41,620 nucleotides of DNA, taken from IMG/VR virus record IMGVR_UViG_2713896897_000009; one strand, given 5' to 3'. The notes beneath the pieces were generated by a model. The model saw nothing but the letters and a program-made list of their open reading frames with translations. It did no database searches and was not told the DNA's origin. Positions 1 through 3,922 of the stretch are shown here, one piece after another. The position numbers and the translations under genes were made by a program. How positions within the stretch are numbered: position 1 is the first letter of the stretch; each line of letters begins with the position of its first letter. The DNA is from a virus. Taxonomy: Duplodnaviria > Heunggongvirae > Uroviricota > Caudoviricetes.

Positions 1-3000
1 TCAGACGGCATGAGGAGTAAATATCAGTATGCTCTCTCTCATGCTTAGCGCCACTGAATGCCACCGCCGGAATAACAATCTGCCGGTCAAACGGCTGATC
101 GTCATAAACCCTGACGGTAATGGTCCCTGATGGCCACCGCTCCGGTGCCCGGAGTCCCGCGGAAAAGCCTTACCCACTGTTTTGACAATATCGCCTTCAA
201 TCTGGTTGGCTGACAGTTTCCCCTTAATCTGACAGTTCTCATTAATTGTGACATTGTTGAGCGTCCCGGCGTTCGCATTCACACTGCCACTGATATCTGC
301 ATTTTTAGCGGTCAGCTTTCCGTCCGGTGTCAGGGAAAATGCCGGAGGATTACCGCCGCTGGTAATGGTGGGAGCCGTCAGGCGTTTCAGGAACACGTCG
401 TTCATGAATATCTGATCGCCCTGACCAACAAACATCGGCTTTGTGTTGCCATTCGCAGGATTAATCATCGCAATCCTGTCTGCCGCCAGCAGCACCTGAC
501 TCTGCATTCCTGCTGGCGTATTCTCAATACCGGCACCGATACCCGCAATATAAAGGCGTCCGTCCTTCATCTGTTGCAGCTTCACAGCCCACATGCTGTT
601 CAGATTATTATTTGTATCAACCTGAACCTTCTGTATCTGCTGGATCGCTGCACTCTGGTCTTCCAGTTTCTTATTGACGGTCTGCGTGATTTCATTACTG
701 ACATCCGTGATGGACGTTCTGATTTCCGCCAGGTCAGGCGCAAGCTGACCGTTATCAATCTGAGTCCACAACTCCTGAGCCAGATGGGTTTTCCCTATCT
801 CTCCTTTGAAAAAATCCAGATAGCCGGATGCATCATCACTCGGCTGGCCAACAGCCTCCACAAATGCCGATTTGCCAACGGTGTTCACACTGCGGATATA
901 AAAGTAATAATCATGGCCCGGTTTGATATTGATACTGGCAGCTATCCAGTACAGCGCCGTGCCAAGATAGCGGGCTGTGGTTTCAACCTGCCTGATATCA
1001 GCAATCCGCTTTTCCGAGAACCAGAACTCAAACTGTACCGTCGGATCATAAACCGCAAGATGCGGCGTGGCGGTTATCTGAAAATAGCCCGGTGTCAGCT
1101 CAATCCGAGACGGCGCTGCCGGTGCGGCAATCCGGAACGATACCGATGCCGGATCGCCCTGCTGTCCCCACGCATTTACCGCCCGGACTGTCAACCTGTA
1201 GTTCCCCGGCGCCAGTTGCGTGAAGCGGTATGTGGTTTCTGTCGTCCTGGCCGTGCTGACCAGCCGCTCACTGCCGTCATCCGCTGCCACGGTCAGGCGA
1301 AGCAGGAAGCTCACGCCCTTCACCACCTTCGGCGTGTCCCAGCGCGCCAGCACCTGATATTCCCCGCTGTCTGCGGTGACTTCGGCGGTCAGGTGCTGCA
1401 CCGCTGGCGGCGTGACACCATTCACCGTGCCGCTCTGGTCGCCGTCAAAGTGCGCCCCGTTATCCACGATGGCTTCTTTTTCCGGCACGTGCTGCACCGC
1501 CGTGATGGCAAAGGTGCCGTCCGTGTTTTCCCGGATGGAGACACAGCGGAACAGGCGACGACGCAGTGACGGCAGGGAGAGTCCCCATACACCGTATGTC
1601 TCCACACCATCAGGCAGGGTGCTGACCTGTATCCGGTCCGGCGCGGGGTGTGCAGTGATGGCCACGCTCACCGGCTTACCGCTGCCGTTAATCAGGTTCA
1701 CCGTGGCGGCACCTGTCTCCGGCAGGGTCACCTCACGGTCCAGTGTCAGGGTGCGGCTGGCGGCATCGATGGACAGGATACGTCCGCCGGTCATGGTCCC
1801 GGCATAGTCGTTATCACAGATTTCAATAATGTCACCGGGTGTGTGACGCAGCCCCTGTGACCCGAGCGTGAAATCCACCGTCTGCGTTTCCAGCAGTCCG
1901 GTCTTTATCACCCACAGCCCGGCACGGTGGGCCTGACCGCGACTGGTGCAGCCGAACGCATCCATCTTCAGCAGGTTGCGCCCGTAGCGCAGTATGGCTT
2001 CCGGGTCTTCCACCAGTTCCGTGGAGGTCTGCCAGCCGTTCTGCGGGTCGGTGTAATTCACCTCCACCGCCGTGTGGCGGTCCTTCAGGGCGCTGAAGCT
2101 GTAGCGAAACCCCACGCCGTTATCATCCACCACCACATCGCTGTTGGTGTACGGCCACACCACATCCGACGGGCGGTCCTGAACGAACGTCAGCGTCTGG
2201 CCATTCCATACCGGCATACAGCGCATCGCCGAGCAGAAATCACTGAGCACATCCCATGCCTTACGCTGTTGTGACAGGTACGCATTAAAGGTCATCCGCG
2301 GCTCGGTCCCCCCGAAACCATCCGGCACCGTCTGGTCGCAGTACTGCGCAATGGCATACAGCGCCCATTTGTCCACGTCTGCCGCCCCCAGACGTTTTCC
2401 CATCCCGTAGCGCGGGTGAGTCAGCATGTCCCACAGGCACCAGGCCGGGTTGTTGCTGTATGCCGGTTTCAGACTGCCGTCCCAGATACCGCTGTACGTG
2501 CGTTTTTCCGGGTCATAGTTTGACGGTACCTGAATGATACGACCACGGATATGGTAGTTCACCGTCATCTGCTGGCCGCCGAACTGCTCCGCATCCACCT
2601 GCAGCCCCACAATGGCCGTGTTCGGGTAGCACTGTTTCACATCGATGATTTCGGTGTATGACGACCACAGCGTTCTGTTCTGCAGCTGGTCCGTGGTGCT
2701 GTCCGCTGTCTCCCGGACCATCCGGATGTTAAAAGGACGGGGAGGCAGATTATCCAGAATCACCGACGCCAGAAACTGCGAGGTGGTCTTGCCGTTAATG
2801 GTGACATCATTTTCCGTCACCCAGTTACCGTTACGCTGCAACTGAATCAGCAGTCGGACAGAAGAGGGATTACGGTCGCCCTTTGAGGTGGTCTCCAACA
2901 GTGACTGCACCCCGAAGGTGACCCGCAGGCGGTCAATGTTCGCGGACGTAATGGTGCGCGTCACCGGCTTTGCCTTCGTCACTTCCACGCCCAGTGCGGT

Positions 3001-3261
3001 TTCCGCCCCGGAGGACTCAAAGCCTTCAGGTGGTGTCTGCTCCTGCTCCCCGGCGCGCCAGACCGCTGTCACACCATGTATCACAGGATTACCGTCCGTG
3101 TCCGTCAGCGGGGTTTTGTTCACCAGGATACTCTGCAGCCCCTTCACCGGACCTTCAATCGGCCCTTCACCAATGGCATCAATCACGCTCATCATCTGCG
3201 TGGACTTAAGATTGTCCTTTGCCTCAACCGGCGTGTGCGCCCTGCCGCCACCTTTACCCAT
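1..3261 (-). CDS. J: Tail tip / host-specificity protein J (lambda J-like); the last ~50 codons are out of frame relative to the J-homologous frame
   Basis: 1086-aa ORF with long stretches matching lambda J as recalled (MGKG..[14 protein letters not shown].., [54 protein letters not shown]). After AFPR (nt 168-157) homology continues in another frame and runs off the left edge. Confidence 0.9.
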
Positions 3262-3394: not shown

Positions 3395-3922
3395 ATGAAA
3401 TGTAAAATCATTGCTGCCATTGCCATGCTGACAGCAGCATCATGCGGATACGCAGCAGAACAGGAAGTCCCAATGAACCTTGTCAGTGCTGACGGAAAAG
3501 AAGTCAGCATTGGAAAAATAACCATTCAGGAGACCCCCTACGGTCTGCTGTTCACACCAGCCCTTCACTCTCTGTCTGAAGGCATTCATGGTTTTCATGT
3601 GCACGAAAAAGGAAATTGCGCCCCGGCACTGAAAGACGGAAAACCGGTCGCAGCATTATCGGCTGGCGGTCACTTTGACCCGAAAAACACCGGCAAACAT
3701 CTTGGCCCCTGGTCTCCGGATGGACACCCGGGCGACCTCCCTGCGCTGTTCGTGACGCATGACGGAAAAGCGAACTACCCGGTCCTGGCCCCGAGACTGA
3801 ACTCATTAAAAGAGATTAAAGGGCGTTCTCTCATGCTTCATGCTGGCGGTGATAACCATCATGACCATCCGGAGCCCCTGGGCGGTGGTGGTGCGAGAAT
3901 GGCCTGCGGCATCATTCAATAA
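3395..3922 (+). CDS. sodC: Periplasmic Cu/Zn superoxide dismutase SodC (prophage moron)
   Basis: ATG at 3395; signal peptide [18 protein letters not shown]; SodC motifs [37 protein letters not shown]; 175 aa. Confidence 0.9.

Follow-up and report, generated by a model that had tools for sequence, protein, structure and literature searches.

The stretch of DNA analysed here (41,620 nt, the window in what follows) was taken from the draft contig BBVG01000001.1 (GCA_001514595.1; 346,931 nt), and its left end lies in a J gene at the very end of that contig. The open reading frame concerned, on the minus strand at positions 1..3261, encodes 1086 amino acids of a tail tip attachment (host specificity) protein and stops at the TGA at 3..1. 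It is a lambda-type J gene. According to tblastn and the gene calls, it belongs to a siphovirus tail module in which it follows homologues of the tape measure gene and of M, L, K and I, in the same order as in lambda, and Pfam detects the two hub domains FNIII-A_GpJ (PF24801, residues 86-207, E 1.4e-40) and Phage-tail_3 (PF13550, residues 330-498, E 7.7e-39), as well as Ig_J, Ig_J_second and Phage_Tail_Tip (PF24421, PF24489 and, at residues 872-1000, PF09327). The first-pass annotation had this frame tracking lambda J closely up to the residues AFPR (codons at nt 168..157, minus strand), with which both the translation and the Pfam domains agree.

Beyond that point the gene changes character. 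The product consists of 1037 native residues and 49 out-of-frame residues (GHRSGG...FTPHAV, positions 4..150, minus strand), which the J frame reads past a deletion before it reaches the TGA. An Arg/His-rich tail running to the stop at 3..1 had been described earlier; tail and stop are both there, but the unrelated part is limited to these 49 residues, with 6 Arg and 4 His, as the D and S that follow AFPR are still native. In the PDB, the 49 residues gave no match at E<=10.

The frame is lost through a single missing base, which is present in the deposited sequence and can be placed precisely. The intact J genes of Escherichia coli O26:H11 11368 and O157:H7 EC4115 read GACTCCCGGGCACC when aligned to the window, which reads GACTCCGGGCACC, so that one C is missing; the site is at 151..152 (minus strand), where the window has CC and these near-identical genes have CCC, the first half of the palindrome CCCGGG. 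This narrows the 1-nt deletion that had been proposed for 137..156, and the spacing on which that proposal was based, 20 nt between AFPR and the W codon instead of the 21 expected, is exact in the alignment. Over the last 260 nt of J the missing C is one of only two differences from these relatives, the other being a synonymous T/A substitution, and past the deletion the DNA is the same as in the intact genes over all 150 nt, and over 18 nt more beyond the window.

The start of the receptor-binding domain (RBD) is still encoded in the -1 frame: a remnant at 2..151 (minus strand) holds the first 50 of its approximately 122 residues (...SSCRL) and reaches the window edge, beyond which the frame stays open for the 18 nt that remain before the contig stops. 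A PDB search with this frame yields lambda J (residues 1014-1058, E 7e-8) and the gpJ of phage A8 (E 7e-10), which bears out the earlier assignment to lambda J; the accompanying remark that the frame goes on beyond the left edge applies to those 18 bases and no further. A translated alignment had been suggested as a check, and tblastn with a relative's gpJ against the window indeed returns two pieces, in frames -2 and -1. The deposited sequence thus has the hallmark of a frameshift pseudogene: a base lost in comparison with close intact orthologues, and similarity that carries on in a different frame.

The frame is lost after Ser1037, where the beta-prism shaft meets the Ig-like RBD at the C-terminus and a few residues into the latter, so that about 122 residues are removed. 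The product retains every hub, FNIII/Ig and shaft domain, and the RBD is missing; Pfam finds Ig_GpJ_C (PF12421) at 1028-1158 in the gpJ of an intact relative and does not find it in the window's reading frame, in keeping with the initial view that the receptor-binding C-terminus had been cut off. The window thus holds a lambda-family J in which the C-terminal domain that defines the protein has been shifted out of frame. Lambda gpJ (PDB 8IYK; 8XCJ/8XCK with LamB) and A8 gpJ (9WCA) have the same series of domains, and the intact relative's gpJ aligns to lambda J 838-1131 (E 5e-99) and to the LamB-complexed gpJ fragment (8XCJ). In lambda, four loops of the C-terminal Ig-like RBD insert into LamB, and its opening triggers the tail (PMC11101478). 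Unlike in lambda, the RBD in the window is out of frame and mostly past the contig end; its sequence also differs from that of lambda (RGSKRTVSGRTTYSMCYL at one stretch), and therefore the receptor need not be LamB.

The contig stops inside J, 18 nt to the left of the window, and these 18 nt (tagtgcggaaaaacggtg) are identical to the intact relatives; the deletion is located about 170 nt from the contig end, in a segment of J that is repeated among prophages. The window begins and ends at the stop codon of a called gene, on the left the false one in J and on the right (41620) that of a tyrosine integrase, which means that the left limit of the provirus was shaped by the frameshift together with the contig break. 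Missing from the window are lom, the tail fibre genes and attR; in other genomes the tyrosine integrase adjoins mlrA/yehV. Queries with this integrase and with a DUF551 protein, both very common, returned other genomes only, and these show mlrA/yehV as the integration site. Many draft assemblies split their contigs at the same base within terS and also in the 3' region of J, and such breaks produce partial coding sequences that mimic truncated genes, among them a 'TerS' of 93 aa with the same sequence as the amber-truncated product described below. They are a trap for exact-protein look-ups.

Intact J genes of this type are found in lambdoid prophages of EHEC and EPEC, such as those encoding WP_000515142.1 (O26:H11 11368) and WP_000514959.1 (O157:H7 EC4115). 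There J measures 3477 nt and encodes 1158 aa in a single frame, with lom and tail fibre genes downstream of it. The window differs from these genes over the last 700 nt only by the synonymous substitution and the deletion (99.7% DNA identity), whereas the remainder of J is approximately 96% identical, which indicates that the window J is a mosaic; this mosaic upstream part and the T at position 187 are markers of the present copy. A search of 5,426 complete E. coli genomes with the same 700 nt gave 14,433 matching places, spread over 4,522 of the genomes, with up to 13 J copies per genome, and the best matches, again 99.7% identical, span 701 nt. A 70-nt query centred on the deletion site was found at 2,773 places in 1,868 complete E. 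coli genomes; none of these places matched at 99% identity or more, and the best ones all span 71 nt. Likewise, the exact 34-nt pattern with CC was absent from the GTDB species representatives, IMG/VR and the JGI metagenomes, and its intact counterpart with CCC was present at 47 IMG/VR loci. Of 1872 complete-genome records, each has the in-frame version at its best place, as do those 47 loci. At the protein level, BBVG01000001.1 is the only contig recorded with the exact 1086-aa product, and the 71-aa open reading frame of the RBD remnant, used as a query, returned only cluster representatives of other alleles.

A second lesion lies well inside the contig. The small terminase gene terS (18872..19435, minus strand) is interrupted by an amber codon: positions 19154-19156 read TAG in frame, against GAG in relatives. 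This TAG was not found among 1,601 places in complete E. coli genomes. The 93-aa N-terminal TerS fragment to which it gives rise is, however, on record in the Logan assemblies of ERR13303001 and SRR27751781, both of which carry the TAG: the ERR13303001 contig is 100% identical over 2,520 nt, and the SRR27751781 contig differs by 8 SNPs over 2,647 nt. Queried with its C-terminal half, TerS matched only contigs that start inside terS and have GAG. The amber codon is a real, inherited lesion. As the same TAG occurs in two independent read sets, the prophage is genuinely defective in packaging, and the divergence of SRR27751781 implies that there has been time for neutral decay. In a packaging-defective, vertically inherited prophage, selection on J is relaxed.

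A further 26 late proteins from O111:H- 110512, the nearest relative, and 24 early proteins from TOE17, the closest relative in the early region, map to the window in single frames and without internal stops. The window contains 210 homopolymer runs of at least 5 nt, 59 of which are of at least 6 nt, and with some 50 clean frames despite these runs, a homopolymer-error-prone platform is unlikely to be behind a change in a run of 3 nt.

Frameshifts in this part of J are not confined to this prophage. I found 1-nt frameshifts in the same CCGCGGGACTCCCGGG stretch in other assemblies (among them the Logan contig from SRR23278689, SQB54298.1, and proteins on 5.4-Mb contigs), where J enters the same out-of-frame tail and ends at the same TGA. 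Their junctions differ from that of the window: AFPRDSR|HRSGG, AFPR|TPGHR, AFP|G(T/I)PVHR and SFPRDS|VHRNAG, with a few lying further upstream, while the junction DS|GHRSGG of the window is unique. Most of these frameshifted relatives also belong to another allele group (FMNEVFLKYL), unlike the window J. In several assemblies, J alleles of the FMNEVFLKYL type are multiply frameshifted pseudogenes, with the 1-nt indels clustering in CCGCGGGACTCCCGGG. The one case checked at the DNA level, the SRR23278689 contig, reads CCCGG, a G having been lost from the same CCCGGG hexamer, and its J is broken by a further frameshift upstream. The CCGCGGGACTCCCGGG stretch is indel-prone in public data.

A J protein that naturally ends in ..FTPHAV had been named as the observation that would speak against a frameshift. 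Protein searches with the tail alone, and with the tail plus 48 J residues, returned no full-length J of this kind; the carriers of the tail were only fragments of 32-256 aa from J genes that are broken or lie at contig edges, namely partial coding sequences from contigs only some hundred bases long, a single chimera from an O145 genome, and wrong-frame pieces of J. In addition, of the five substitutions that separate the two alleles here, four leave the protein of the receptor-binding frame unchanged when read by eye, which identifies this frame as the selected one.

The deletion creates a perfect 6-bp inverted repeat, CTCCGG-GCA-CCGGAG, at 140..154 (arms at 140-145 and 149-154). A repeat search finds the perfect form in the window only; the intact locus has an imperfect repeat with a bulged C, CTCCCGG-GCA-CCGGAG. 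The local hairpin changes from -3.1 kcal/mol in the intact sequence to -6.0 kcal/mol in the deleted one, though in a 28-nt context, where hairpins compete, the intact sequence folds slightly better (-8.4 versus -7.4 kcal/mol). Such a repeat would be created by 49 of the 2,571 single-base deletions possible in intact J (1.9%), and by 5 of the 148 in runs of at least 3 nt. Template-switch mutations at quasipalindromes are described in E. coli (PMC7202029), with the perfecting of imperfect repeats as their signature, and in the window an imperfect inverted repeat has indeed become a perfect one. The neighbouring deletion in SRR23278689 perfects no repeat. The C was likely lost by replication slippage in the short G+C-rich run, to judge from its setting, and the quasipalindrome made perfect by the deletion may possibly have helped. 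The case for a quasipalindrome mechanism is modest, as plain slippage in a run of 3 nt explains the loss equally well.

The window thus contains a J that has been frameshifted as a lambdoid prophage of pathogenic-type E. coli decays, or else an error of assembly with the same appearance. The first-pass annotation had left the matter between prophage decay and a sequencing error, and this either/or is supported; two facts pull against each other, the terS amber codon one way and the distance of about 170 nt to the contig end the other. Both outcomes are well known, common and ordinary.

The reading I favour, with a probability of roughly 0.55, is a genuine pseudogenisation of J in a lambda-like E. 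coli prophage next to mlrA/yehV, through the loss of one C from CCCGGG. The nonsense codon in terS would have come first, after which the tail genes of the packaging-defective element would no longer have been under selection, and the frameshift in J would be one more step of ordinary prophage decay. By analogy with lambda, particles built with this J would presumably be unable to bind their outer-membrane receptor. Speaking for a real mutation are the terS amber codon, located 19 kb in from the contig end, the otherwise clean assembly, and the different 1-nt frameshifts that other data sets have at CCGCGGGACTCCCGGG, which show that such lesions do occur at this spot; the perfecting of the inverted repeat also fits quasipalindrome template switching. 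Against it stand the position of the site, so near a draft contig end and within a repeated segment, and the absence of the exact allele from every other sequence searched. Furthermore, the 168 nt past the deletion show no further decay, and hence the event must be either very recent or not real.

Alternatively, J may be intact in the strain and the C may have been lost in assembling the last approximately 170 nt of BBVG01000001.1, a segment shared by several J copies, in which case the truncated frame would result from gene calling on a faulty contig end. I regard this as a serious possibility, if somewhat short of even odds. The contig ends inside J, and the 3' 700 nt of the gene are 99.7% identical to copies that number up to 13 per genome, which points to a contig break induced by the repeat; assembly errors concentrate at such repeat-linked ends. 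The allele is unique across the collections searched, the sequence after the deletion is identical to that of intact genes, and many drafts are split in the same region of J, with odd partial coding sequences as a result. However, a run of 3 nt is a poor candidate for a homopolymer error, and the other approximately 50 genes are without frame breaks despite 210 longer runs. Mixing of paralogous J copies would not delete the base either, because every best-matching copy seen has it. The decay of the prophage is moreover known independently, from an amber codon present in three data sets, and a real frameshift in the same hexamer occurs elsewhere (SRR23278689). The proximity of the contig end itself discriminates only weakly between the two explanations, as a real deletion would be the final base to distinguish this copy ahead of the shared 3' end of J, and a graph-based assembly would be expected to break off soon after it.

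If the lesion in J is real, the mlrA prophage can neither package, owing to the terS amber codon, nor adsorb, and it would be a fixed, non-transmissible element; this would be relevant only when the mobility of prophages in this lineage is assessed. An artefact, on the other hand, would illustrate that gene calls and provirus boundaries at the ends of draft contigs are unreliable. In either case the observation has little importance beyond annotation.

The recurrence of frameshifts in public assemblies could suggest something more, namely that the 16-nt G+C-rich CCGCGGGACTCCCGGG at the shaft/RBD junction is a selected hot spot for recurrent -1 frameshifts, or even a switch that can be reversed. 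In that case lysogens would time and again separate the RBD from the tails of their resident prophages, as a form of domestication or to avoid self-adsorption, beyond neutral decay. At least four or five distinct junctions cluster at CCGCGGGACTCCCGGG, but J copies are very numerous (14,433 places, as counted against the 5,426 complete genomes), the stretch is made up of short G/C runs, and several of the frameshift carriers are multiply broken genes, and I consider such a role very improbable. That frameshifts gather in a single G+C-rich stretch of J is no more than a small curiosity.

Least credible of all is that programmed -1 frameshifting or transcriptional slippage restores a full-length J, or that the tail is a deliberate alternative C-terminus. 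The receptor-binding frame is in the -1 position relative to the upstream frame, the G+C-rich site has hairpin potential, and frameshifts recur at the same spot, but a direct reading of CGG GAC TCC GGG CAC reveals no X XXY YYZ slippery heptamer, transcriptional slippage would need a longer run than the 2-3 nt present, J has the extra base and is read in a single frame in every near-identical relative, so that a need for a shift is not conserved, no full-length protein ends in this tail, and the mostly synonymous allele substitutions preserve the receptor-binding frame; I have therefore rejected both programmed frameshifting and a natural alternative C-terminus.

Several other features of the window may be mentioned. 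The portal region (12693-15001, minus strand) holds an open reading frame of 362 aa that covers Pfam portal positions 2-254 of 321 and ends in an odd tail, and a frame of 407 aa overlaps it by 4 nt and contains 3.3 copies of a 162-nt (54-aa) tandem repeat at 13159-13691. A portal frameshift at 12693..15001 was considered as further decay and rejected, as PGAP also flags the gene as 'portal, frameshifted' in O111:H- 110512 and O55:H7 CB9615; the conserved split possibly reflects a programmed frameshift, a fused-gene model, an annotation habit or an old shared lesion.

A SASA-family esterase of the nanS-p type (24220-25467, minus strand) aligns to its relatives only from residue 185, the N-terminal third being missing. 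Between this gene and a tRNA cluster (25648-25899; Arg-TCT, Arg-TCG and Met/Ile-CAT) lie approximately 130 nt that are free of genes, at a position that is occupied by stx in Stx phages, and the region looks like a deletion. Just upstream of the tRNA cluster is a gene for an N6/N4 DNA methylase (PF01555; 25949-26998, minus strand; 349 aa) that is absent from TOE17. Finally, sodC (3395-3922), on the plus strand and thus opposite to the I and J genes between which it is inserted, encodes a Cu/Zn superoxide dismutase of 175 aa, 99.4% identical to WP_000649829.1, and is a moron-type cargo gene.
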